From assembly GCA_949451655.1 (NCBI GenBank), contig CASTST010000001.1, forward strand, positions 1,981 to 65,980: 64,000 nucleotides of DNA, given 5' to 3'. Source of the stretch: an uncultured Eubacteriales bacterium. Lineage in GTDB: Bacteria; Bacillota; Clostridia; Oscillospirales; CAG-272. Shown piece by piece: positions 7,077 through 64,000 of the stretch (its first letter is position 1; the number at the start of each line of letters is the position of its first letter). The translations under genes were made by a program, and so were the position numbers. Below the pieces are notes generated by a model that was not told the origin of the DNA, ran no database searches, and worked only from the letters and a program-made list of their open reading frames with translations.

Positions 7077-7392
7077 AAGCCTCCTCCCAGCAAAAGGGGG
7101 ACGGCACGCAGCACAGTCTATAAGCCTCCCATGTGAGGACCTGCTGCGCAGTTCCGAGGTGGTGCCGATACAAGCACCCACTCTAAGCCCCCCTTGTGCA
7201 AAGGGGGGTGCCGATGCAATCGGCGGGGGGATTGTCTGCACATACTACCGATTTGCTGATCCTGCAAAATGATCGTATAAACAATCCCCCAGTCTCCGCT
7301 GCGCGAAGCCAGCCCCCTATGGAGCCACGCAGTGGATCCTCACACGGGGGCCTTTTAACGTGGGTATATGCTTCGCAACAACCCCATAGGGA
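7077..7392 (+). repeat. Mosaic hairpin-repeat array R4 (1 unit)
   Basis: Core at 7228-7288 (F). The left arm is GCCGAT-GCA-ATCGGC plus GGGGGGATTGT. Flanking GAGGACCTGCTGCGCAGTTCCGAGG and GGAGCCACGCAGTGGATCC modules. Confidence 0.9.
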
Positions 7393-8030: not shown

Positions 8031-9078
8031 GGCGCGCACCCCCTGCTTTCTTTGCCGGGATTGTGCAAATGACCCGTTCCAAAGCAATATAATCCAGCCT
8101 TGTGCTTTTGAGAAGCACATCTGCTTCTCTGCACCGCCCTGCGGCGGCAGCAAGCCGTGCAGGTTCCATTCCCCGCACAGCGGAAAGATACAATCCCGCC
8201 CGATAGGTGTGCATTTTGAGTGCAGACGCTACGCCCGCCTGATCGTATCCTGCTGCGGCAAGGCGGCTGACCGTCAGCATATCGCAAATGGCTTTTGATA
8301 CGGATGCCAGTGCAGCAACAGCGCTGATCTGATTTTTCTTATAATAAGAGAGAACGGACAGCGCCCGCCCACGATCTCCTGCTAAAACTGCATTGGCAAG
8401 GGCAAAAGCGTCCTCCTCCTGGACAGCGCAAGTGACAGATTGGATGTGAGACGGTTTCAATGCACAGATCCCGTTTGCCTGTGCATATGCAGCAAGCTTG
8501 TCCAATTCTCCGGACAAAATATACATATCCTTGCCGCATCGCTGGAGCATGGCATCGGCGGCCTGCTCCGTCATGGAAACGCCGGAACGTTCCAGTCGGC
8601 GTGCCATCCATTTTTTCAGTTCTCCCGGAGGATATGCCGCCATATTCACCATGGTGCAAACTGTTTCCAATTTTTTATATAGGGGAGATGGCTTTCCCCG
8701 TTCCGGCTTACCCGGATCAAAACCGCCGGCAGGGGGAGTGAGCAAGCACACGGTGCTGCTTTGATCCACCTTTGCAAGAATTTCCATAAGCTGCTTTTGC
8801 CCCGGTGCACCGAGAGTGTTCAGATTTGCCATATACTGAATGAACACCCTGTCCCCCATTACAGGAACTGCCAGTACAGCCTCCTGCAAATCGTCCAGAT
8901 CGGGGGCATCTGCGCCCATAGTATACATGTTGAAAGCGGCAAGGGTTGCATCGTCTGACAAAGTAAGTGTTTGGGCACGTCCGGCATAAAACCGCTTTAA
9001 ATAATCTTCTTCTCCATAAAGAAGATACGTACCGGCAAGTCCGTTTTTCATTTCACGCCGGAATGCTGCTTCCGTCAT
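8023..9078 (-). CDS. holA: DNA polymerase III subunit delta
   Basis: Inner ATG (MTEAAFRREMKNGLAGTYLLYGEEDYL...) preceded by AAAGGAGG. HolA-like over its whole length. Confidence 0.85.
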   Translation of the reverse strand: MTEAAFRREMKNGLAGTYLLYGEEDYLKRFYAGRAQTLTLSDDATLAAFNMYTMGADAPDLDDLQEAVLAVPVMGDRVFIQYMANLNTLGAPGQKQLMEILAKVDQSSTVCLLTPPAGGFDPGKPERGKPSPLYKKLETVCTMVNMAAYPPGELKKWMARRLERSGVSMTEQAADAMLQRCGKDMYILSGELDKLAAYAQANGICALKPSHIQSVTCAVQEEDAFALANAVLAGDRGRALSVLSYYKKNQISAVAALASVSKAICDMLTVSRLAAAGYDQAGVASALKMHTYRAGLYLSAVRGMEPARLAAAAGRCREADVLLKSTRLDYIALERVICTIPAKKAGGARRA

Positions 9079-40523: not shown

Positions 40524-41372
40524 AAGGCTCCCCCAGCAAAAGGAGTTTCCATATAGCACAAACTTCAAAAGGCTCTCTTGCGCTATAAGGAATATGACGT
40601 ATCAAATTACCACCATACTCAAGCCTCCCCCAAACAAAGGAAAGTGGCGCAGCGCAAACTTCCACTTCCTTCATAAGCCCCCCCATGTGAGGACCTGCTG
40701 CGCAGTTCCGAGGGGGTGGCTTTCCATATGCGAGTCGGGGGGATTGTCTGCATATACTGCCGATTTTGAGATCATTCAAAATGATAGTAAAACAATCCCT
40801 CAGTCTCCGCTACCGCGGAGCCAGCTCCCTTTACACAAGGGAGCCTTTATAAATTGGGGAGCGCTATCGCGCCAGCTACCACCTCACCAAAGCCCCCTTA
40901 TACTGAAGCCACATAGCGGAAGGTGGTGGCGTAGTAAGTTTTCGCCCCATTCAAGCCTCCCCCCAGCAAAGGGGGGGTGGGTTTTGCGCAGCAAAACTCG
41001 GAGGGATTGTTTGCGCATACTGCCGATTTGAAGAAATACAAATTGAAAGCAAAGACAATCCCTCACCCGCTTCGCGGGAGCTCCCTTTGCACAAGGGAGC
41101 CTTTTAAAGTTATGTGCTACACAGGAGTTCCTTTTGCTGGGGGAGCCTATAATCAAGCCCTAAGCCTCCCCTGTGCAAGGGGAGGTGTCAGCTAAGCGTA
41201 GCGTTGCTGACGGAGGGGTTGTTTCGCACATATCGCCACTTTATGGTTCCTGCGAAATGATAGTTTTACAATCCCTCAGTCACGGCTAAGCCGTGCCAGA
41301 TCCTTTACTGGAGGGAGCCTTTTGGTTTGATGCTTCATGACAGCTCCCGATAAAGCCACGCAGTGAATTCCC
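40524..41372 (+). repeat. Mosaic hairpin-repeat array R15 (3 units in tandem)
   Basis: Cores at 40739-40799, 41003-41062 and 41215-41275 (the last degenerate, with GGGGTTGT), all F. This is the longest array in the window and fills the dnaN-remB gap. Confidence 0.9.
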
Positions 41373-53302: not shown

Positions 53303-53725
53303 GCCACCCCCAGCTGGAGTCGCGCTGCAAGTTCCCACCTAACTTTATAGGCTCTCCCAGCAAAGGGAGCTGTCACGGTGCAGGCTCCGTCCTTTTTAGC
53401 CTCCCTTGTGCAAAGGGAGGTGGCACGCCGTAGGCGTGACGAAGGGATTGTCTGTACATACTGCCGATTAGTAGATTATCCAAAATGATAGTTTTACAAT
53501 CCCCCCGCCGATTGTATCGGCACCCCCTCTTGCTGGGGGCTTCCAAACAAACCTAAGCCTCCTGTGTGAGGATCCGCTGCGCGGCTCCAAAAGGAGGTGG
53601 CGCGGCGTTAGCCGTGACGGAGGAATTGTCTGTACATACTGCTGATTTGTAGATTATCTAAAATGATAGTATTACAATCCCTCACCCGCTACGCGGGAGC
53701 TCCCTTTGCACAAGGGAGCCTTTTT
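53303..53725 (+). repeat. Mosaic hairpin-repeat array R19 (2 units)
   Basis: Cores at 53444-53503 (F, left-type arms on both sides) and 53622-53681 (F). The array ends GGGAGCCTTTTT, 12 nt from the serS stop. Confidence 0.9.
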
Positions 53726-53736
53726 ACGTTTGTATA

Positions 53737-55023
53737 TCAGTCTTTCTTCAGAATATCCGTACCAAGATACTTTTGTAAAACCTCCGGCACAGAGACGCTG
53801 CCGTCCGCATTCTGATTCTGTTCTACGATTGCGGGCAGGATGCGGCTGGTTGCCAGACCGGAACCGTTCAATGTGTGTACAAATTCCGTTGTATTGCTGC
53901 CGTCCCGCTTGAAACGGATGCTTCCCCGGCGCGCCTGATAATCCCGCGCATTGGAAACAGAGGACACTTCTTTATATCCGTCCATGGAAGGAATGTGGAT
54001 TTCAATGTCATATGTCCGTGCCATAGATGCGGAGCAGTCTGCTGCGGCAAGCTTCACGGTGCGGAAATGGAATCCCAGACCCTTTACCAGCGCTTCCGCT
54101 TTTCCTACCAGTTCTTCAAAAGCTGCGTCGGAATCCTCCGGACGGGTGTACTGTACCATTTCAACCTTGTTAAACTGATGTCCCCGTACCATGCCCCGTT
54201 CATCTGTCCGGTAAGAGCCGGCTTCCCTGCGGAAACAGGGTGTGTAGGAGATATATTTCCGGGGCAGATCTGCCTCGGTGAGAATTTCATCCCGATGGAG
54301 GGATACAAGAGCAGTTTCTGCGGTAGGCAGCATGAACCGGCGTCGCTCATCCTCCGCAGTTTCCAGCCAGTATACTTCATCCTTAAATTTCGGGAACTGA
54401 CCTGCGGTAAGTCCGCATTCGTAGCCCAGCATATGGGGTACCAGCACCAGCTCATATCCATCGGAAAGGTGGGTGTCAATAAAGTAGTTCAGCAGTGCCC
54501 ACTCCAAGCGTGCACCCATTCCGCGGTAAATCCAGAATCCGTTTCCGGACAGCTTTGTTCCCCGCTTATAGTCGATCAGTCCCAGATCGGTACACAGATC
54601 TACGTGATTTTTCGGTTCAAAATCAAAATGATGAGGCTCGCCGAAATAGCGGATCGGTTCGTTGTTCTCTTTTCCGCCGGGCGCCAGATCCGGATCCGGC
54701 AGGTTGGGCAGTCCCAGCAGCAGATTGTTGTATTCTGCTTCCACCTGTGCCAGCTTTTCATCGTTCGCTTTAATCTGTGCGGACAGCTCTTTCATAGCTG
54801 CAAAAATGGGAGAGGGATCCTTTCCCTCTTTTTTCATTTGAGGGATTTGCTTGGTGGCGCGGTTCTGTTCCGCTTTTTTTGCTTCATTCTCGCTTATCAT
54901 TTCCCGACGGCGTGCGTCCAGTTCTACAATACGCGCAATGTCGTCCTTTGCGTCTGTTCCTTTTGCCGCCAGACGGCGGACAATTTCTTCCGGATTTTCC
55001 CGAATCAGTTTAATGTCCAGCAT
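53737..55023 (-). CDS. serS: Serine--tRNA ligase
   Basis: 428-aa ORF with AGGAG RBS, an N-terminal coiled coil and class II motifs. Confidence 0.96.
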   Translation of the reverse strand: MLDIKLIRENPEEIVRRLAAKGTDAKDDIARIVELDARRREMISENEAKKAEQNRATKQIPQMKKEGKDPSPIFAAMKELSAQIKANDEKLAQVEAEYNNLLLGLPNLPDPDLAPGGKENNEPIRYFGEPHHFDFEPKNHVDLCTDLGLIDYKRGTKLSGNGFWIYRGMGARLEWALLNYFIDTHLSDGYELVLVPHMLGYECGLTAGQFPKFKDEVYWLETAEDERRRFMLPTAETALVSLHRDEILTEADLPRKYISYTPCFRREAGSYRTDERGMVRGHQFNKVEMVQYTRPEDSDAAFEELVGKAEALVKGLGFHFRTVKLAAADCSASMARTYDIEIHIPSMDGYKEVSSVSNARDYQARRGSIRFKRDGSNTTEFVHTLNGSGLATSRILPAIVEQNQNADGSVSVPEVLQKYLGTDILKKD

Positions 55024-55063: not shown

Positions 55064-55936
55064 TTATTCTTCCGTAATTTTCCTGCCGCATACGGTTTCC
55101 AGCAGGGTTTCCAAATCGGTTTCATCAGAAAATTCAATAGATATGGTTTTTCTGCCGCCTTTGGTGGAAATCCGGCACCACCGTCCGGTAAGTCCGGTAA
55201 CCTTGTGCTCCAGCTCTGCTACATAGTTTACCTGCACGCCCGGTTCCTTGGGTGCGGGTGCAGGACGCTGTTTGTTCTGGGCTTTTACGGCGGCTTCCGT
55301 TTCCCGCACGGACAGATTGCGTGCAACAATCCGCTGGGCTAAGGCTTCGATACCGTCTTTGTCCCGCAGTCCCAGCAGTGCGCGGCAGTGCCCCGCAGTC
55401 AGTCTGCCATCCTGTAACATTACCGCAATACATTCCGGCAGATCCAGCAGACGCAGCGAATTGGCAATGGCGCTGCGGGATTTTCCCAGCCGTCCTGCCA
55501 CTTCCTCCTGGGTCAGATCAAACTGGGCAAGAAGGGTTTGATATGCCTGCGCTTCTTCATATGGATTGAGATCCTCCCGCTGGAGGTTTTCGATCAGGGC
55601 AAGCTGCGCGGTACGCAAATCGTCCGCTTCCAGCAGCAGCGCGGGGATTTCCGTCAGTCCTGCCAGCTTGGACGCCCGCCACCGCCGTTCCCCGGCGATA
55701 ATCTGGTACAGTCCATTTTGCCCTTCCCGCACCAGAATCGGCTGAAGCACGCCGTTTGCAGCAATGGAATCTGCAAGCTGAGACAGTGCCTCCGGATCAA
55801 AATGCTGCCGGGGCTGGTCGCTTTTCGGCTCCACCTGAGACAGGCGCAGCTTGATGACGCTGTCCTGGGGCTGATCCGGTGTGTTGTCGGAAAAAATCAT
55901 ATCAAGCCCTCTGCCGAGGGCAGGTTTTTTTGCCAT
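55064..55936 (-). CDS. parB: Chromosome partitioning protein ParB/Spo0J
   Basis: 290-aa ORF with GGAGG RBS. ParB-box (GERRWRAS) and HTH region. Confidence 0.93.
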   Translation of the reverse strand: MAKKPALGRGLDMIFSDNTPDQPQDSVIKLRLSQVEPKSDQPRQHFDPEALSQLADSIAANGVLQPILVREGQNGLYQIIAGERRWRASKLAGLTEIPALLLEADDLRTAQLALIENLQREDLNPYEEAQAYQTLLAQFDLTQEEVAGRLGKSRSAIANSLRLLDLPECIAVMLQDGRLTAGHCRALLGLRDKDGIEALAQRIVARNLSVRETEAAVKAQNKQRPAPAPKEPGVQVNYVAELEHKVTGLTGRWCRISTKGGRKTISIEFSDETDLETLLETVCGRKITEE

Positions 55937-56006
55937 GAGTACCTCCGTATTTTATCATGGGGAAGAAGCGAATGTGCGGCTTTATTGGGGCTCGCCGCGG
56001 GCGCCG

Positions 56007-56121
56007 CTTAGCCCTTTTTTGTAAAAAAGGGCTAAGAACCCAAAAAACTTTAAAAAGGAATTATATAATTCTATTGGAGTTTTTGAGGATTCAAAAGGGA
56101 CTTTTTACAAAAAGTTCCTTT
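56007..56121. other. Three palindromes in the parA-parB spacer
   Basis: CTTAGCCCTTTTTTGTAAAAAAGGGCTAAG (56007-36), GAATTATATAATTC (56058-71) and AAAGGGACTTTTTACAAAAAGTTCCTTT (56094-121). Confidence 0.6.
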
Positions 56122-56154
56122 TGCGGGGTCAGGGGCAGCGCCCCTATGTAATTC

Positions 56155-56925
56155 TTACAGAACCCGGGAAACCAGTTCCTTTGCAATTTCCATATATGCA
56201 AGGGAGCCTTTTGAATACTTGTCGTGATAGAAAATCGGCTGTCCGAAGCTGGGCGCTTCCGAAAGCTTTACGTTACGCACTACAGGCGTTTTAAACAGCT
56301 TGTCCGCATAGTAGCGTTTCAATTCCGCAAGCACCTGGGTGGAAAGGTTGAGCCGTCCGTTATACATAGTAATCAGAATGCCTGTGATTGACAGAAGGGG
56401 ATTGTATAACTGCTTCACTTTTTTGATAGAGATCATCAGCTGGGACAGCCCTTCCAGTGAGTAATATTCACACTGCATGGGAATCACCACACCGTGGGAA
56501 CAGGAAAGGGCATTTACAGTAAGCATACCCAATGAGGGGGGGCAATCGGTGAAAACAAAGTCAAAATCTTCTCCAACATCGGCAAGCACGCTGCGCAGGG
56601 AGTATTCCCGTTTTTCCCGGTCCAGCAGTTCGATTTCAGCGCCTGCAAGATCCATGGTGGCAGGCAGGAGCCAGAGTCTGTTAAATTGGGTGGGAACGAT
56701 TGCCGCGGCGGGGGAGCAGCCCCCGAGCAATGCGTCGTACATGGAATAGTGCAAAGATTTTTTATTCTGACCTACGCCGCTGGTAGCATTTCCCTGGGGA
56801 TCCAGATCGGCAAGGAGCACGCGGAATCCGAGGCTTGCAACGCAGGCGGCTATATTGACAGCGGAAGTGGTTTTGCCCACACCGCCTTTTTGATTTGCAA
56901 ATGAGATAATAACAGGTCCGCCCAC
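56155..56925 (-). CDS. parA: Chromosome partitioning ATPase ParA/Soj
   Basis: GTG at 56925, 6-7 nt after GGAGG (VGGPVIISFANQKGGVGKTTS...). The longer ORF start (57027) runs into repeat array R20. Confidence 0.9.
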   Translation of the reverse strand: MGGPVIISFANQKGGVGKTTSAVNIAACVASLGFRVLLADLDPQGNATSGVGQNKKSLHYSMYDALLGGCSPAAAIVPTQFNRLWLLPATMDLAGAEIELLDREKREYSLRSVLADVGEDFDFVFTDCPPSLGMLTVNALSCSHGVVIPMQCEYYSLEGLSQLMISIKKVKQLYNPLLSITGILITMYNGRLNLSTQVLAELKRYYADKLFKTPVVRNVKLSEAPSFGQPIFYHDKYSKGSLAYMEIAKELVSRVL

Positions 56926-57022
56926 TACATAACCTCCATATATAAATTCATACCTTATATTATAAGGCTGCGGGGGATTTTTGTCAACAGAATTTGATGC
57001 GGTGTTATAAAGATTTCGGCAA

Positions 57023-57187
57023 AGCACAGACTAAAAGGCTCCCTTGTGCAAAGGGAGCTGGCTCCGCGTAGCGGAGACTGAGGGATTGTTATACTATCAT
57101 TTTGAATAATCTTCAAATCGGCAGTATGTGCAAACAATTCCTCCGTCTTGCCTTACGGCAAGCCACCTCCTTTTGCACAAAGGAGGC
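57023..57187 (-). repeat. Mosaic hairpin-repeat unit R20
   Basis: Core at 57082-57141 (R). The first ~110 nt, including the 14-nt lead-in AGCACAGACTAAAA, are nearly identical to R21. Confidence 0.9.
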
Positions 57188-57225
57188 TGATAAAGTTCCT
57201 GCGAATTTGAAAAATATCTATTCAT

Positions 57226-57281
57226 ATTTACAACAGATTCGTTGTAAATTCCCGGTGATATATCTCAATACTATTGTAAAT
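57226..57281. promoter_or_regulatory. Candidate operator upstream of the HTH gene
   Basis: ATTTACAAC-N6-GTTGTAAAT palindrome (57226-57249) plus a third half-site ATTGTAAAT (57273-57281). A TGcTATAGT extended -10 lies at ~57303. Confidence 0.35.
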
Positions 57282-57437
57282 GGAATACCTACATATTTTT
57301 TGTGCTATAGTTATACTTGTTTATTGGATCATGTAAATTGTTCTCTATTTTGTCCGTTTTTCATCCCAATGGATCCTGTGCGGAAAAAGACGGAATGTGT
57401 ATAATTTTAGTAAATAACAAAAGATAGGTGGGTGTGA

Positions 57438-57755
57438 ATGGACAGTATAAAATTGGGAATCAAAATCAGAAAATGCAGACAAGCCCGCCATCTAAGTCAA
57501 AATGAATTAGCGGAGAAAGCAGAAATCAGTACAAGATATCTTGGGGATATCGAACGGGGAGCAAAGATTCCAAAACTATCAACTTTCATCAATTTACTGA
57601 ATGCAATGAATGTATCAGCAGACTATGTACTTATGGACGCGTTGCATGTGCAGCAATCGGAATTGGAAGTATCTTTTGAGTATCTTCCGCCGGAAACAAA
57701 AACAAAAATGCTGGATGTTTTGGAGACAATGATCCGCAATTTTGCGAACGGATGA
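57438..57755 (+). CDS. XRE-family helix-turn-helix transcriptional regulator
   Basis: 105-aa ORF. LSQNELAEKAEISTRYLGDIERG is a Cro/C1-type HTH. Confidence 0.85.
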   Translation: MDSIKLGIKIRKCRQARHLSQNELAEKAEISTRYLGDIERGAKIPKLSTFINLLNAMNVSADYVLMDALHVQQSELEVSFEYLPPETKTKMLDVLETMIRNFANG

Positions 57756-58150
57756 GCCACGATCTTATTAAAAAGCAGATTGCTTTCATTGAAGCCTGCG
57801 GGCGGATTGTCCTTCCTCCGTATATATGCAAAACGATGGACTGGGAGCCGGGCATGGACATTATTGCAACCAAAGTAGGTGGGATATTGGTTTTGCAGCC
57901 GGCGGTCCGTCCGAAATGCTGTATTTGCGGGGCGGATTTGCGTGTTAAAAAGCTTCTACATACATACATTTGTCAGGATTGCATTGATCATGGGGATAAA
58001 TACCTGATATGGGAAAAAACGGCAAAGGTATGGGAAGGAAGAGATGACTATGAGGATGAGTGTGTGGAAGAAATAGGAGAGCTCTGCGATTATGGGTATG
58101 ACAATGAAAACGAAGAAGATTATGATAGTGATGCGTTTATGAGAAATTAA
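57752..58150 (+). CDS. AbrB/SpoVT-like domain protein with a Cys4 ribbon and an acidic tail
   Basis: 132-aa ORF overlapping the HTH gene by 4 nt. GRIVLPPYICKTMDWEPGMDII..LVLQP resembles a swapped-hairpin AbrB fold. CCICG...CQDC follows, then an Asp/Glu-rich C-terminus. Confidence 0.6.
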   Translation: MSHDLIKKQIAFIEACGRIVLPPYICKTMDWEPGMDIIATKVGGILVLQPAVRPKCCICGADLRVKKLLHTYICQDCIDHGDKYLIWEKTAKVWEGRDDYEDECVEEIGELCDYGYDNENEEDYDSDAFMRN

Positions 58151-58413
58151 GCACAGACTAAAAAGGCTCCCTTGTGCAAAGGGAGCTGGCTCCGCATAGC
58201 GGAGACTGAGGGATTGTTATACTATCATTTTGAATAATCTTCAAATCGACAGTGTGTGCAGACAATCCCTCCGTGTTTTGCTGCGCAAAACCCACCTCCC
58301 TTTGCACAAGGGAGGCTTTGGTGAGGTGGTAACTTGGTGTGCCACCTCCTTTTGCTAGGAGGAGGCTTTAGTATGGCGGTAGCTGGCGCGTCACTTTCCT
58401 CTACCGGGTGAGC
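58150..58413 (-). repeat. Mosaic hairpin-repeat array R21 (1 unit)
   Basis: Core at 58210-58269 (R). It is a direct repeat of R20 across the right-type arm and core, with a different distal arm (GTTTTGC-TGC-GCAAAAC). Confidence 0.9.
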
Positions 58414-58425
58414 CTTTGTTCCCGC

Positions 58426-58457
58426 AAAAAACGCTTTGCGTATGCAAAGCGTTTTTT
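58426..58457 (-). terminator. Intrinsic terminator after jag
   Basis: AAAAAACGCTTTGC-GTAT-GCAAAGCGTTTTTT, a 14-bp stem flanked by A and T runs, 3 nt from the jag stop. Confidence 0.85.
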
Positions 58458-58459
58458 AC

Positions 58460-59461
58460 TTATTCTTCCGTTTTGTTTGCTTCAGGACGGGGTCCTCTGC
58501 GGCGGCGGTCAACTTTGTCCGCACCTTCGTAGCAAACTACGATTTTGCGGTTTTCATCCCGTCCAACCGAGTGGGTGGATACATTTTCAATATCCTGAAT
58601 TTCAGAGTGGATAATGCGCCGCTCAAAGGGATTCATAGGCTCCAGCACAATATTTCTGCGATATTTCTGTGCTTTTGCAGCTGTCCGACGCGCCAGAGCG
58701 CGCAGAGTTTCCTCCCGCTTGCGGCGGTAATTTTCAATATCTACGATAATCTTTACAAAATCCTTGGAGGTTCCGCCGCCCTTGCGGTGGGTGCAAAGAT
58801 TTACAAGATACTGAATCGCATCCAGCGTTTCTCCATGGTGCCCAATGAGAATGCCCGCGCCTTCTCCGGTGATTTCCATCCGGGGATATGTGTTTCCGCC
58901 AATTCCGGAAGGTTCGTCCTCTACAAATTCTGCTTTTGCGTCAACGCCCATATCGGAAAGAAGCATATTCAAAAAGGACAGTGCGCATGCCCGCTCTTCA
59001 TCGGTGATTTCGATAACTTTGGTTTCTTTGATATTTTTGGCTTTCGGTGCGCTTTCCTGTTTTGCAGCAGGCGCTGCCTCCTTTTTCGGAGCAGGAGCAG
59101 ATTTTGCAGGCTTTGCTGCTTCTTCTGTCTTTACAGGTTTTGCAGGGGCAGCTTCCGCCAGCTTGTCCTTCTTTGGAGCAGCCGGCTTTTTCTGTGCCGG
59201 TGTGCTTCCGTCTCCGCCTTTGCCTGTGGCGACTTTCAGTCCCTTAATAGATGCTACGATGCCGGAAAGATCCGTATCTTCCTCTTCCGGTTCATCGTTG
59301 ATGATTACTTTAATTTTTGCAGGGGAAGCGCCGATTCCGAAGATTCCCTTTTTCGGCATTTCCAAAATCTCATACTGGACATTTTCCCCGCTGTATTCCG
59401 ACTGCGCCTGTGCCATAGCGGCTTCAAAGGTTTTGCCGGTGATAATGATTTCTTCTGCCAT
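58460..59461 (-). CDS. jag: RNA-binding protein Jag/KhpB (Jag_N, KH, R3H) with a Pro/Ala/Lys-rich linker
   Basis: Inner ATG (MAEEIIITGKTFEAAMAQA...). C-terminal KH/R3H region (LEPMNPFERRIIH). Positioned after yidC. Confidence 0.88.
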   Translation of the reverse strand: MAEEIIITGKTFEAAMAQAQSEYSGENVQYEILEMPKKGIFGIGASPAKIKVIINDEPEEEDTDLSGIVASIKGLKVATGKGGDGSTPAQKKPAAPKKDKLAEAAPAKPVKTEEAAKPAKSAPAPKKEAAPAAKQESAPKAKNIKETKVIEITDEERACALSFLNMLLSDMGVDAKAEFVEDEPSGIGGNTYPRMEITGEGAGILIGHHGETLDAIQYLVNLCTHRKGGGTSKDFVKIIVDIENYRRKREETLRALARRTAAKAQKYRRNIVLEPMNPFERRIIHSEIQDIENVSTHSVGRDENRKIVVCYEGADKVDRRRRGPRPEANKTEE

Positions 59462-59508
59462 AACGATCTCCATTTTCAAGCTGTTTTCGGACGACCGCCC
59501 GAAATGCT

Positions 59509-60660
59509 TTATTTCTTTTTATACTGTTTTGTGCCCTTGTCCTCTTTGATCAAAGGGGCTTCGGCGCTGTCCGCCGGGGGCAGTTCCTTTTTCTCTGCCT
59601 TTTCAGCAGACTCTTTCGGCGCGTCCTTCTTGCTGTCGATTGCGGGAGTGCTTTCATCCTCATCGTCAATATGATGGAGGGAGCGTTTGCCGCTGCCGGC
59701 AGGAAGTGTGCCGCCCGGTTTCTTCTTGTTCTTTTTGGACGAGCCGTTCAATTCCCGTTCTGCCGCTTTATAGTCCTCTTCCGTAAAGGTTGGGGGCGGC
59801 ATGATCTTGTACAAAGCCATTTGCTGGAGTGTTGCCGCAATGGAGCGGTAAATCCAGTAGATACCTACAGCAGCAGGCATATAGAAAGAAACATATACAG
59901 AAATCAGCGGTGTGGTGTACATCATAATCTTCATGGAAAGACTATTCTGCTGCGCTTTCGTTGCAGGATCCTGATATGTAAAATGCCGGGTGATGATCTG
60001 GCTTGCGATCATGACAACAAAAATCAGAACCGGAATCAGCACCAGAATAGATGCAAATTTCGGTGCCTGGGACATGTCAAATCCGCCGATTGAGAAGGTG
60101 GGAAGCACGGTAGGCGTTTCCCCGTTTAGAAGCGTATTGACATGTTCGGTTTCATCCTTGTGTTCCAGCAGATACCGCAGGATGTCATACTGCTGGGAAC
60201 GCACATCTTGGGAAATTGCAATCCCCGCGTTTTTGAAGTTTTCGACAATTTTTGCAATCCCGCTGCCGTCAAACCGGCAGATTCCGCAGATATACCGCAG
60301 GGGGTTGACAATCACCTGATACAGTGCCAGAATAATGGGAAGCTGGATCAGCATGGGAAGACAGCCGCCCATGGGGTTGAAGCCGTTTTCCTGATACATT
60401 TTCTGGGTTTCTTCCTGCATTTTCAGCTGGGTTGCCTGGTCCGTGCGACCTGCGTATTTTTTACGCAGCGCAGCAACCTTGGGGGCAAGGGCAGCCTGTT
60501 TCAGGGAGTTTTTGTGGGTGCGGATACCAAAGATAAAGCAAAGCACAAGCTGCACCAGAACGGTGAATACAGCAAGGGCTGCAAGATAGTTCGGGAAGAT
60601 CCAGCAGCAGAACTGCATGAGATACCCGAAGGGGACGATCAGATAATCAAAAAAGCTCAT
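59509..60660 (-). CDS. yidC: Membrane protein insertase YidC with a long Lys-rich C-terminal tail
   Basis: 383-aa ORF with the YidC/Oxa1 core (GGCLPMLIQLPI...). Positioned after yidD/rnpA. Confidence 0.92.
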   Translation of the reverse strand: MSFFDYLIVPFGYLMQFCCWIFPNYLAALAVFTVLVQLVLCFIFGIRTHKNSLKQAALAPKVAALRKKYAGRTDQATQLKMQEETQKMYQENGFNPMGGCLPMLIQLPIILALYQVIVNPLRYICGICRFDGSGIAKIVENFKNAGIAISQDVRSQQYDILRYLLEHKDETEHVNTLLNGETPTVLPTFSIGGFDMSQAPKFASILVLIPVLIFVVMIASQIITRHFTYQDPATKAQQNSLSMKIMMYTTPLISVYVSFYMPAAVGIYWIYRSIAATLQQMALYKIMPPPTFTEEDYKAAERELNGSSKKNKKKPGGTLPAGSGKRSLHHIDDEDESTPAIDSKKDAPKESAEKAEKKELPPADSAEAPLIKEDKGTKQYKKK

Positions 60661-60699
60661 CTTTCAGATTTACCTTTCAGAAGGTTAATACAAGGGCAG

Positions 60700-60939
60700 T
60701 CAGTGTTTCTTTTTCCCGGATTTGCGCACGGGTACAGGATCATATCCGCCCCTTCCCCAAGGATTGCATCGCAGAATCCGCCAGAGGGAAAGCGCAAGAC
60801 CCCGCACCACGCCCCACTCCTCAATGGCAAGAATGCAATACTGGGAGCAGGTAGGGGTAAACCGGCAGCGCGCTGGAAAAAGAGGAGAAAGGAATTTTTG
60901 GTACAGGCGCACCGGCGCCTGAAAAATCTTTTTAAACAT
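60700..60939 (-). CDS. yidD: Membrane protein insertion efficiency factor YidD
   Basis: 79-aa ORF with the YQKFLSPLFPARCRFTPTCSQY motif. Confidence 0.92.
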   Translation of the reverse strand: MFKKIFQAPVRLYQKFLSPLFPARCRFTPTCSQYCILAIEEWGVVRGLALSLWRILRCNPWGRGGYDPVPVRKSGKKKH

Positions 60940-61352
60940 TATTGCCCCGAACCGCTGTGCGGTTCTTTCTGTTTTTGTTGCTGAAGCATGTCAACTTTGC
61001 GCAGGCAGTACTGCAAATCACGCAAAACGTCCTGCATTTTTGAAACCGTGGCGGCATGCCTTGCGGTAATCACCACAAGATAGCCTTTTTTCACACCTAT
61101 TTCTGCGTCTGTCAGTCTGTATGCCTCGCGGATAACCCGCTTGGCACGGTTGCGTTCCACGGCACCTCCGATTTTCTTTGAGGCGGAAATGCCCACGCGG
61201 TTGATCGTTTGCTTCATGGGATTTGCGGCGCGCAGGGCGCGCGCCTTACGGTCGCCCAGGATATATACGCAAACAGTTTTAGCCGCGGCGCGCCTGCCGC
61301 GGGCATATGCTTTCTGGTATAGATGATTTTCGCAAATGGCGATCTGCTTCAC
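60939..61352 (-). CDS. rnpA: Ribonuclease P protein component
   Basis: GTG at 61352, 6 nt after GGGAGG (the ORF track start is at 61385). RnpA-like (VGISASKKIGGAVERNRAKRVIREAYR). TAATG overlap with yidD. Confidence 0.88.
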   Translation of the reverse strand: MKQIAICENHLYQKAYARGRRAAAKTVCVYILGDRKARALRAANPMKQTINRVGISASKKIGGAVERNRAKRVIREAYRLTDAEIGVKKGYLVVITARHAATVSKMQDVLRDLQYCLRKVDMLQQQKQKEPHSGSGQ

Positions 61353-61493
61353 ATCTGACCTCCCGGGTTTGATAAAATCAGACAAAACGCTGTAACAAAA
61401 GAACGCCTCCGAACGATCCGTAGTCCGGATCCAAAGCGGAGGCGGGCGGGGAATCCCCGCTTTTTCTCATGGTAGAGGCTCACAGTGCCCCGT

Positions 61494-61843: not shown

Positions 61844-62270
61844 AAAAGGCTCCTCGTGCGATGCTAACCAAACGTAAAAAGTCTCCCCCGGTAAAGGGGG
61901 CGCACCGTACTCCACCAACCTTAAAGCCTCCCAGCAAAGGGAGCTCCCACGGAGCGTCCAAACTTTATAAGGCTCCCTTGTGTAAAGGGAGCTGTCACAG
62001 CTTTGCTGTGACTGAGGGATTGTCTATGCTATCATTTTGAATAATCTATAAATCGGCAATCCACCGAAACAATCCCTCCGGGTTTTGCGTAGCAAAACCC
62101 ACCTCCCTTTGCACAAGGGAGGCTTCAGTTTAGTGGGTGCTTGCATCGGCACCTCCTTTACACAAGGGGGGCTTATAACGTAAGCGCTTGCTCCGCGGGA
62201 CCCCCCTTTTGCTGGGGCTTTTTGTTTGGCGAAAATCGCACAAGGGAGCCTAACGGAGCGAATCCCCTCC
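61844..62270 (-). repeat. Mosaic hairpin-repeat array R22 (1 unit)
   Basis: Core at 62016-62076 (R). Arms are GTCACAGC-TTT-GCTGTGAC and GGTTTTGC-GTA-GCAAAACC, with multiple accessory hairpins on both sides. Confidence 0.9.
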
Positions 62271-63486: not shown

Positions 63487-64000
63487 CTCACTTGTGGATC
63501 CACTGTGTGGCTCCACAGGGAAGTGTTGCGTAGAACCTACGTTAAAAGGCCCCCATGTGAGGATCCGCTACGCGGCTCCATAGGGGGCTGTCGACCAAGC
63601 GTAGCGACGTCGACTGGGGGATTGTTTCTACTATCATTTTGGATAACCTGCAAATCGGCAGCATGTACAGACAATTCCTCCGTCTTGATCGCTATGCTTG
63701 GGCAAGACACCTCCTTTTGCACAAAGGAGGCTTTAGTATGTTGGTAGCTGTCGCGTAGCACCCACGATAAAAGGCTCCCCCCAGCAAAGAGACTTCCGCG
63801 GAGCACAAACATGAAAAGGCCCCCTTGTGCAAAGGGGGCTGTCACAGCTTTGCTGTGACTGAGGGATTGTAATTCTATCATTTTGCAGGATCTACAAATC
63901 GACAGCATGTGCGAGACAATCCCTCCGTCACGGCTGCGCCGTGCCACCTCCCTTTACACAAGGGAGGCTTAGGGTTTGATTGCAGCCCCCCTTTGCACAA
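63487..64000 (-). repeat. Mosaic hairpin-repeat array R23 (2 units, runs off the window)
   Basis: Cores at 63618-63678 and 63863-63923 (both R). The array is still in progress at base 64000. Confidence 0.9.

Follow-up and report, generated by a model that had tools for sequence, protein, structure and literature searches.

A two-gene regulatory operon between parA and jag of an uncultured clostridial bacterium pairs a small repressor with a rare AbrB-like zinc-ribbon protein

Locus organization

We explored the interval between the parA and jag genes in a stretch of 64,000 nucleotides (nt), hereafter the window, from the genome of an uncultured Eubacteriales bacterium (contig CASTST010000001.1). 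This interval holds a true two-gene regulatory operon, made of a small repressor gene with a helix-turn-helix (HTH) domain and of a second open reading frame (ORF), ORF2, which encodes a rare AbrB-like zinc-ribbon protein with a conserved acidic tail. Two copies of a palindromic repeat, R20 and R21, bracket the pair, and a previous reading made from the sequence alone had considered the whole as a cassette inserted or duplicated by recombination within the repeat core, possibly a small regulatory or toxin-antitoxin-like (TA-like) module.

The genes serS, parB and parA, on the minus strand, are followed by R20, an upstream gap, the HTH gene and ORF2 on the plus strand, then by R21, a terminator and the minus-strand genes jag, yidC and rnpA (Table 1). 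The ORF list returned the gene pair with the coordinates and the 4-nt overlap (ATGA) already proposed, and this overlap predicts that ORF2 is translationally coupled to the HTH gene. The segment between parA and jag is indeed A/T-richer than its surroundings, as had been noticed, with GC contents of 39% for the HTH gene, 43% for ORF2 and 31% for the upstream gap, against 49.5% for the window. For comparison, relatives were drawn from a scan for Jag among the GTDB species representatives and mapped by tblastn and blastn; the window is thereby placed among uncultured Clostridia near Candidatus Avispirillum, and related loci are designated below by an L number.

Table 1. Features of the parA-jag interval, in window coordinates.
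Feature	Coordinates	Strand	Basis
parA (soj-type ATPase)	56155..56925	-	Pfam AAA_31 1.7e-58 and CbiA; 100% amino acid identity to L006 orthologue
parA promoter, consensus sigma-70-type (TTGACA-17-TATAAT, 12/12 matches)	56959..56987	-	promoter scan
R20 repeat	57022..57190	+	repeat alignment, folding
AT-rich regulatory region (31% GC), 247 nt	57191..57437	+	composition, conservation
Dyad, candidate operator	57226..57249	.	sequence, simulation
Third TTGTAAAT half-site	57274..57281	+	kept in L004, L039, L028
Candidate extended -10, TGcTATAGT	57303..57311	+	sequence reading
Second candidate -10, TATAAT	57400-57405	+	sequence reading
Predicted ribosome-binding site AGGTGGG	57426-57432	+	sequence reading
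XRE-family HTH repressor gene, 105 amino acids	57438..57755	+	Pfam HTH_3 1.7e-14
ORF2, 132 amino acids	57752..58150	+	ORF list
ORF2 residues 8-52, AbrB/SpoVT/MazE-like swapped-hairpin domain	57773..57907	+	AlphaFold2, Foldseek, profiles
ORF2 residues 53-80, C4 zinc ribbon	57908..57991	+	conserved cysteines, AlphaFold2, Foldseek
ORF2 residues 93-132, acidic aromatic-rich tail	58028..58147	+	conservation, composition, predicted disorder
R21 repeat	58149..58320 (with appended modules, to ~58413)	+	repeat alignment, folding
Extra hairpin modules of repeat family, appended to R21 (families D2, D3)	58321..58413	+	repeat search
Perfect 14-bp-stem bidirectional terminator, common to jag and cassette	58426..58457	.	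conserved in L004, L006
jag (khpB)	58460..59479	-	Pfam Jag_N, KH_KhpA-B, R3H

ORF2, a rare protein of the AbrB kind

ORF2 matches no family above threshold in Pfam, NCBIfam or PADLOC, and a set of 5.8 billion clustered proteins contains only 8 of its homologues. When 1.84 billion representatives were searched exhaustively with a profile, seven hits fell below 1e-10, the other 66 hits (1e-8 to 1e-3) being mostly AbrB-plus-CxxC proteins of about 80 amino acids that align over ORF2 residues ~8-82, while a metagenome scan with the ORF2 alignment found at least two loci. The family was not found in a viral-contig scan or in a phage collection, and a plasmid collection returned only one distant AbrB-family match. 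Searching with the tail by itself yielded no candidates, probably owing to a limit of the word index. Below threshold, ORF2 matches TIGR01439 (E = 0.076, 12.8 bits for a cut-off of 28.3) and phrog_4681, labelled ‘antitoxin’ (2.7e-4), and a tblastn search matched a Paenibacillus AbrB-family gene at 4e-4. In the alignment of ORF2 with its short relatives (A4), PF04014 is present in 19 of the 31 sequences; one short relative carries the annotation ‘transcriptional pleiotropic regulator of transition state genes’, and the joint family profile matches the N-domains of AbrB, Abh and SpoVT in the PDB at 7e-10 to 3e-8.

Structure prediction with AlphaFold2 gave a predicted local distance difference test (pLDDT) score of about 90 over residues 11-80 and a disordered tail. 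Foldseek ranked the full-length AbrB model 9a4b first (93 columns), followed by the AbrB N-domain (1yfb), SpoVT, MazE and Abh, with probabilities of 0.9-1.0 and weak E-values, from 8e-3 to 0.7. The model and the profiles thus support an AbrB/SpoVT/MazE-like swapped-hairpin fold for the N-terminal domain, and the AbrB/SpoVT-like fold, the four-cysteine ribbon and the acidic tail that the sequence-only reading had recognized in the 132-residue protein were all recovered.

The ribbon cysteines (C56, C59, C74 and C77, in a CxxC-x14-CxxC arrangement) are invariant or nearly so and lie in a region with a pLDDT of about 90. The ribbon matches uS14/S29-type ribbons and model 9a4b, and occupies the position of the C-terminal multimerisation domain of AbrB, with ORF2 C56 aligned to AbrB C54, a residue essential for tetramerisation. 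Two other identities were considered for this module. An HxxxCxxC motif as in ZAS anti-sigma proteins is present (H70, C74, C77) and was rejected, the histidine being not conserved in the homologues. The ORF2 ribbon (residues 56-77, 57917-57982, with ...[FY]ICxxC) also resembles that of Gin/CsfB, an anti-sigma-G factor, though too weakly to be of use: with a broad profile, PDB entry 5n7y was matched at E = 0.034, and the Pfam Gin family matches one short relative at 3e-3, which is probably generic ribbon similarity.

The residues R8, R15, R23 and R24 have been proposed as the DNA-binding site of AbrB (PMC4022651). Arginine occurs at the R8, R15 and R23 positions in 16/24, 20/24 and 16/24 of the short relatives, against 0/7, 3/7 and 0/7 of the tail-bearing proteins; four of the latter carry histidine, glutamine or glycine at the R15 position, and four of the seven have lysine or arginine at the R24 position. 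By this alignment, most of the arginines through which AbrB contacts DNA have been lost from the tail-bearing subfamily, and we infer that ORF2 may have lost DNA binding.

The tail of ORF2 combines 17 aspartate or glutamate residues with two lysine or arginine residues (pI 4.05), is predicted to be disordered, and has large parts that are invariant. The whole protein has a pI of 4.5 and a strongly negative net charge. Compared with L001, the nonsynonymous substitution rate (dN) of the tail is 0.088 for a synonymous rate (dS) of 1.39, whereas the dN of the AbrB-like domain reaches 0.376; on these rates, the tail is the most conserved and most constrained segment of ORF2, with the lowest dN/dS. 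Over the entire gene, dN/dS ranges from 0.17 to 0.37, and dN approaches dS over residues 53-92. Within this part, residues ~78-92 (57983-58027) form a divergent patch, IDHGDKYLIWEKTA versus IECAEKSTIYEHSI, common to P0005 and not to L004, L005 or L006, and flanked by DNA almost identical between the compared genomes, which suggests a second recombination mosaic within the gene.

The HTH repressor and its predicted operator

The assignment of the first gene to the XRE family was confirmed by an HTH_3 match of 54.1 bits over residues 10-63, for a Pfam cut-off of 23. The protein consists of an HTH domain (residues 6-66) and a helical C-terminal extension (residues 67-105). It matches RstR and the PADLOC families HTH_VI and CapH over its full length, below the cut-off where one is curated, and the solved structures nearest to its HTH domain are DdrO, ImmR and SinR. 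Its dN/dS ranges from 0 to 0.14. DdrO, ImmR, SinR and CapH are repressors inactivated by a co-encoded partner. No ImmA/IrrE-type metallopeptidase is co-encoded here, the sole partner gene, ORF2, having no peptidase family or motif in Pfam, NCBIfam or PADLOC; and neither an ImmA/IrrE/CapP-type metallopeptidase nor a cyclic-oligonucleotide-based antiphage signalling (CBASS) system nor a prophage was found nearby in the ORF list of the window and its Pfam matches.

Upstream of the HTH gene lies a dyad, ATTTACAAC-N6-GTTGTAAAT, with arms of 9+9 bp. Arms of at least 9 nt arose in 59/2000 Markov simulations of the upstream gap (~3%), and three of the nine occurrences of the half-site TTGTAAAT in the window fall within this gap. 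The AT-rich upstream region is kept in L004, L005, L039 and L028. The dyad has one mismatch each in L004 and in L039; in L028 it reads GGATAATTACAA-N8-TTGTAATTATCC, with an identical T-to-A change in both half-sites and 12-bp arms, and this symmetric change is accompanied by the substitution T32A where the predicted recognition helix of the HTH protein begins. Both -10 candidates are also kept in L028; a simple promoter scan called neither, there being no -35 element at either.

In L006 and L031, the upstream region and the 5' half of the HTH gene are replaced by unrelated sequence. The HTH gene is a mosaic: for its N-terminal half and upstream region there are two alleles, A in the window, L004, L005, L028 and L039, and B in L006 and L031; in L006, the allele-B N-terminal half is joined to the common 3' half of the gene (compared segments: L006:8089-8200 and L031:360-812). 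Allele A always bears the dyad and the third TTGTAAAT half-site, while allele B bears another palindrome, (T/A)GTGTACACTA. The linkage of the HTH N-terminal half and upstream DNA as alleles is what an autoregulated repressor-operator pair predicts. We infer that the dyad and the extra half-site form the operator of the HTH repressor, a role suggested previously for the dyad and supported by its conservation in L004, L039 and L028 and by the symmetric change in L028. A vestige of the other allele can be seen in L039 (150-365, 609-1347), where a B-type promoter with a frameshifted, repeat-truncated 5' remnant sits just upstream of the intact A-type gene.

History of the locus and partners of ORF2

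In the sister species L006 (~92% nucleotide identity; ParA 100% and ParB 99.7% amino acid identity), the order is yidC-jag-ORF2-HTH-parA-parB, with a repeat on each side. The order HTH-ORF2-jag is found in L004 (~94%); in L007 (~89%), ORF2 adjoins jag, separated from it only by a simple hairpin, without any full repeat; and L031, which overlaps L007 with 89% identity, carries parA, a repeat, an XRE gene (B'), a terminator, a divergent second XRE gene and ORF2. ORF2 is thus, in the gene orders compared, a resident of the parA-jag interval across the clade. No empty parA-jag site, such as one holding a single repeat, was found among these relatives: genomes with ~80% Jag identity lose synteny and have no parA within 6 kb of jag.

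Two relatives differ on the right-hand side. In L028, the coupled pair stands beside DUF4430 genes, the same genes being found ~3 kb from jag in the cassette-free L008. In L005 (1100-2092), the HTH-ORF2 pair encodes proteins identical to those of L004, and the gene beyond the repeat is not jag but a class-II tRNA-synthetase-like one (HisS/HisZ-like by sequence reading). This contig, with 1.6x coverage and diverging exactly at the repeat, may be an assembly chimera or a true rearrangement.

The regulatory neighbour of ORF2 is variable. A coupled XRE gene of allele A is the partner in the window, L004, L005, L028 and L039, and an XRE-B/A chimera in L006. In L031, L007 and L038, the XRE partner is divergently transcribed, and in L032-L037 and L040 an Arc-like protein of 66 amino acids (phrog_582, 1.7e-5) is encoded 27 nt upstream of ORF2. 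In L040 (121-945), the Arc-like gene precedes two tandem, tail-less ORF2-like genes, on a metagenome contig that carries the same repeat family. No such regulator was called in L001-L003, where ORF2 lies between a VanY gene and a gene of 154 codons whose product, in L001, has no family match and appears from its sequence to be membrane-bound or secreted. Judged from these architectures, ORF2 stays constant while the gene beside it varies. No toxin-family gene adjoins ORF2 in the window or in the five other architectures, and neither ORF2 nor the 154-residue neighbour of L001 has a PADLOC hit. Of the small regulatory or TA-like module envisaged from the sequence, the regulatory operon therefore stands, and the TA part finds no direct support in these searches, a looser form in which a repressor guards a harmful payload being conceivable.

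The repeat family and the R20/R21 pair

The window contains 63 occurrences of the motif GACTGAGGGATTGT, for four expected, and such motifs pair into 28 full elements of ~165 nt in 64 kb, about one per 2.3 kb. Each element is built from an outer hairpin, a variable second hairpin, a conserved 14-mer, a core of ~44 nt, the inverted 14-mer, a variable hairpin and an outer hairpin (examples at 979-1170, 1256-1448, 40674-41341, 53378-53747, 61950-62142 and 63552-63989). Stems differ between copies with both sides changed, as in GGCTCCC/GGGAGCC versus GGCCCCC/GGGGGCC, which indicates that the hairpins are maintained. Rfam gave nothing meaningful, whether the whole window was scanned at gathering thresholds or positions 56900-58500 at E-value thresholds, and a literature search by sequence strings gave only chance matches. 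Since the repeats are present in about half of the intergenic gaps, and in almost every one above 300 nt, a transcription unit bracketed by two copies is expected by chance.

R20 is laid out as lead-in, outer hairpin, second hairpin, GACTGAGGGATTGT, core, ACAATTCCTCCG, a CTTGCC-TTAC-GGCAAG hairpin and an outer hairpin, and folds as one long hairpin with a free energy of -77 kcal/mol (z = -9.1; z = -7.3 for R21). R21 starts inside the ORF2 stop codon, and its distal arm is GTTTTGC-TGC-GCAAAAC. The two copies point in the same direction and share 95% identity over 117 nt, including an identical 15-nt lead-in, AAGCACAGACTAAAA; over the left arm and core (57022-57133 for R20, 58149-58261 for R21), they are 95.6% identical. 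They are therefore the near-identical direct copies with differing distal arms described earlier, and their first ~113 nt are 96% identical. Over the left arm and core, they form the most similar of the 378 repeat pairs, the next reaching 92%, 91% and 90%, and some other pairs share right arms at 98-100%. Their similarity is not an outlier, and modules are shared in mosaic fashion across the family. The lead-in, moreover, resembles the outer module found elsewhere (GGAGCACAAACATGAAAAGG in the copy at 63797-63989, ACGCACAGACTTCAAAAGC in L004 and ACGCACAGACATCAACAGCC in L039), and is thus not a target-site duplication.

The L006 copies (8283-8394 and 7212-7319) are 71% identical to each other over the left arm and core. 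Compared with the L006 orthologue over this part, R20 is 82% identical and R21 71%, and the distal arms are orthologous, at 97% for R20 and at 86% for R21, for which the shorter extracted L006 segment limits the comparison. The low similarity of the L006 copies and the orthology of the distal arms imply that the near-identity of R20 and R21 is not the scar of a cassette entry; these comparisons point instead to a recent, lineage-specific homogenisation of ~110 nt between copies 1.1 kb apart. The pattern resembles gene conversion over ~110 nt between neighbouring copies.

The copies also change orientation. L004 and L005 have the right-hand core in inverted orientation; in L031, L028 and L039 it is the left-hand copy that is inverted (compared segments: L004:1020-1200, L031:188-346, L028:1-60 and L039:365-572), while L007 and L031 retain only a lone outer-type hairpin after ORF2. 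Because the outer hairpins are palindromic, the two ends of an element repeat each other in direct as well as inverted orientation, an arrangement that could allow in-place inversion or deletion of the repeats.

Neighbouring genes

Translation of parA probably starts from the GTG at 56925, which is preceded by a GGAGG ribosome-binding site; the mechanical ORF call extends to a GTG at 57027, crossing the perfect TTGACA-17-TATAAT promoter. The origin-proximal order is rearranged (window 55064-61385), with jag abutting the parAB-serS block and no trmE, gidA or rsmG between them. The gene after jag differs in the two related genomes inspected, being uvrA in L012 and replaced by repeats and unrelated genes in L008. 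With this variation between relatives, the flank of jag is a synteny breakpoint.

Interpretation and alternative explanations

We favour, with moderate confidence, a model in which the operon encodes a repressor-guarded, AbrB-derived payload that acts through protein contacts mediated by its tail and that did not arrive as a repeat-borne insertion. The XRE repressor would bind the dyad and the extra half-site, and so limit transcription of its own gene and of the coupled ORF2. ORF2 would oligomerise like AbrB, stabilised by the zinc ribbon, and would have given up the canonical DNA-contact surface. Its tail would contact a conserved cellular DNA-binding protein, ORF2 serving as a decoy, an anti-repressor or a DNA mimic, in a manner analogous to the action of AbbA on AbrB or of SinI on SinR and unlike that of a classical DNA-binding transition-state regulator. 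The flanking repeats belong to a genome-wide palindromic family that colonises terminator-type gaps.

Several observations weigh against this model. ORF2 itself falls below the Pfam and TIGRFAM thresholds, so that its homology to AbrB is transitive, via the relatives of about 80 amino acids, and the profile of the tail-bearing subfamily alone gives no AbrB match in the PDB. About ten members of the family are known, making the statistics thin. In the ORF2 of the window, R18 is retained where AbrB has R15, and a lysine stands in the place of R24, which leaves room for residual DNA binding. Since the HTH and ribbon-helix-helix neighbours themselves have acidic C-terminal extensions, they are no obvious partners for an acidic tail. 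As for the operator, the dyad lies ~190 nt upstream of the start codon, and both candidate -10 elements lack a -35 element; alone, the dyad is only moderately unlikely (~3%), and the covariation rests on one genome.

The retained residues (G17-R18 and K27) are also what would be expected if ORF2 were an ordinary DNA-binding regulator of the AbrB type, in a clostridial zinc-ribbon form, with the tail as a modulator (e.g. by auto-inhibition) and the HTH protein as a co-regulator. The fold and architecture match full-length AbrB (9a4b, 93 columns), and the annotation of a short relative as a transition-state regulator and the tblastn match on an annotated AbrB-family gene go in the same direction. 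We consider this explanation unlikely, given that the R8 and R23 arginines are absent from all seven tail-bearing members and R15 is replaced in four of them, that the N-domain evolves faster than the tail, and that the pI is 4.5. A TA-like module, in which the HTH protein would repress or neutralise a harmful ORF2, or in which ORF2 would be an orphan AbrB-type antitoxin whose toxin was lost or lies elsewhere, would account for the 4-nt gene overlap and the low GC content. The swap of the first DNA-binding gene between XRE and Arc-like before a constant second gene also fits, mix-and-match partner swapping being typical of type II TA modules, as does the likeness of an AbrB-like N-domain with a disordered acidic C-terminus to the design of MazE and VapB (with the phrog_4681 ‘antitoxin’ match at 2.7e-4). 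However, a toxin-family gene adjoins ORF2 in none of the architectures and ORF2 has no PADLOC hit; ORF2 has no called regulator in L001-L003 and is represented by two tandem genes in L040; the HTH gene is divergent in L031 and L038, which is not a TA layout; and the family is not found in the phage and plasmid collections, save for one distant AbrB-family plasmid match. The AbrB fold is not known to be a toxin fold, and we hold a TA-like module to be improbable.

We regard as very improbable an insertion or duplication of the HTH-ORF2 cassette through recombination in the cores of the flanking repeats, which would act as its mobility sites. What speaks for such an event is the direct orientation of R20 and R21, the most similar pair of the window, together with the low GC content of the cassette, the coincidence of mosaic junctions with repeats (as in L039, where a repeat truncates the B-type HTH remnant) and the presence of other right-hand neighbours in L028 (DUF4430) and L005 (class-II tRNA-synthetase-like gene). 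Yet the repeat is found in about half of the intergenic gaps genome-wide, the lead-in belongs to the family rather than to a target duplication, the near-identity of the two copies is lineage-specific, and the flanking copies differ, flip or vanish between relatives while ORF2 stays. In L006, L004 and L007/L031, the position of ORF2 is largely conserved without a constant pair of flanking repeats; furthermore, the ORF list of the window shows no recombinase gene nearby, and L005 is possibly an assembly chimera. The insertion or duplication suggested by the sequence-only reading is thus not sustained. The repeats may invert and homogenise in place and may drive the shuffling of repressor alleles at the locus. 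Returning to the repressor-guarded payload, a bolder version is conceivable, which we hold to be doubtful: ORF2 would found a new class of AbrB-derived, non-DNA-binding effectors, zinc-ribbon-stabilised oligomers whose highly conserved acidic, aromatic tails would imitate DNA or sequester a conserved cellular DNA-binding protein or an RNA polymerase factor, and whose potency would explain why each lineage keeps them under dedicated, interchangeable repressors (XRE A, XRE B, divergent XRE or Arc-like), in a new anti-repressor or TA-like ‘guarded effector’ module.

Significance and comparison with known systems

If the repressor-guarded payload is the correct interpretation, AbrB-type regulators have yielded a derivative that no longer contacts DNA and acts via an acidic tail, an intramolecular counterpart of the AbrB/AbbA pair. 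The setting would be the uncultured gut Clostridia, with their little-described control of transition state and sporulation. The pattern of swappable repressors is a simple signature by which other guarded payloads of this sort can be sought in genomes. In addition, the locus illustrates how abundant palindromic repeats can flip, homogenise and mark recombination junctions without moving the genes that they bracket, so that repeat brackets should not be taken for insertion scars. The practical importance is modest, the ORF2 family being rare.

Among known systems, REP/BIME, Correia, BOX and RUP-type elements (resembling miniature inverted-repeat transposable elements) are, like the repeats of the window, short, non-coding, intergenic, hairpin-forming, modular and abundant; those of the window differ by an unusually high density (28 per 64 kb), by palindromic outer hairpins and by copies that flip between relatives. 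The HTH protein resembles the small XRE repressors with C-terminal oligomerisation extensions (RstR, CapH, ImmR, DdrO and SinR), through full-length matches to RstR, CapH and HTH_VI and through its HTH domain for DdrO, ImmR and SinR, all below the family cut-offs where these exist.

With the AbrB-fold antitoxins MazE, VapB and PemI, ORF2 shares the fold class, the disordered acidic C-terminus and a two-gene layout with a 4-nt overlap; it differs from them in being the second gene rather than the first, in having a zinc ribbon and in its conservation in the absence of any partner toxin. AbrB is displaced by AbbA, an acidic protein that mimics DNA (bioRxiv 10.1101/2024.08.12.607668). As no more than a working analogy, ORF2 may be likened to AbbA and to the SinI/SinR pair, as an acidic protein (pI ~4.5) that would mimic DNA or bind a repressor and that is encoded beside a SinR-related XRE repressor; ORF2 differs in carrying an AbrB-like domain itself. 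The closest relatives are AbrB, Abh, SpoVT and the clostridial-type AbrB proteins of ~80 amino acids (with a CxxC-x14-CxxC C-domain), which have in common with ORF2 the swapped-hairpin N-domain, the position of the C-module and the small size. ORF2 departs from these regulators in falling below the family thresholds, in having lost R8 and R23 and not conserved R15, in the addition of an acidic tail of 40 residues, its best-conserved part, and, save in L001-L003, in its place beside a small repressor of its own. ORF2 is, in sum, a new form of the AbrB kind, set in a locus that is otherwise ordinary.

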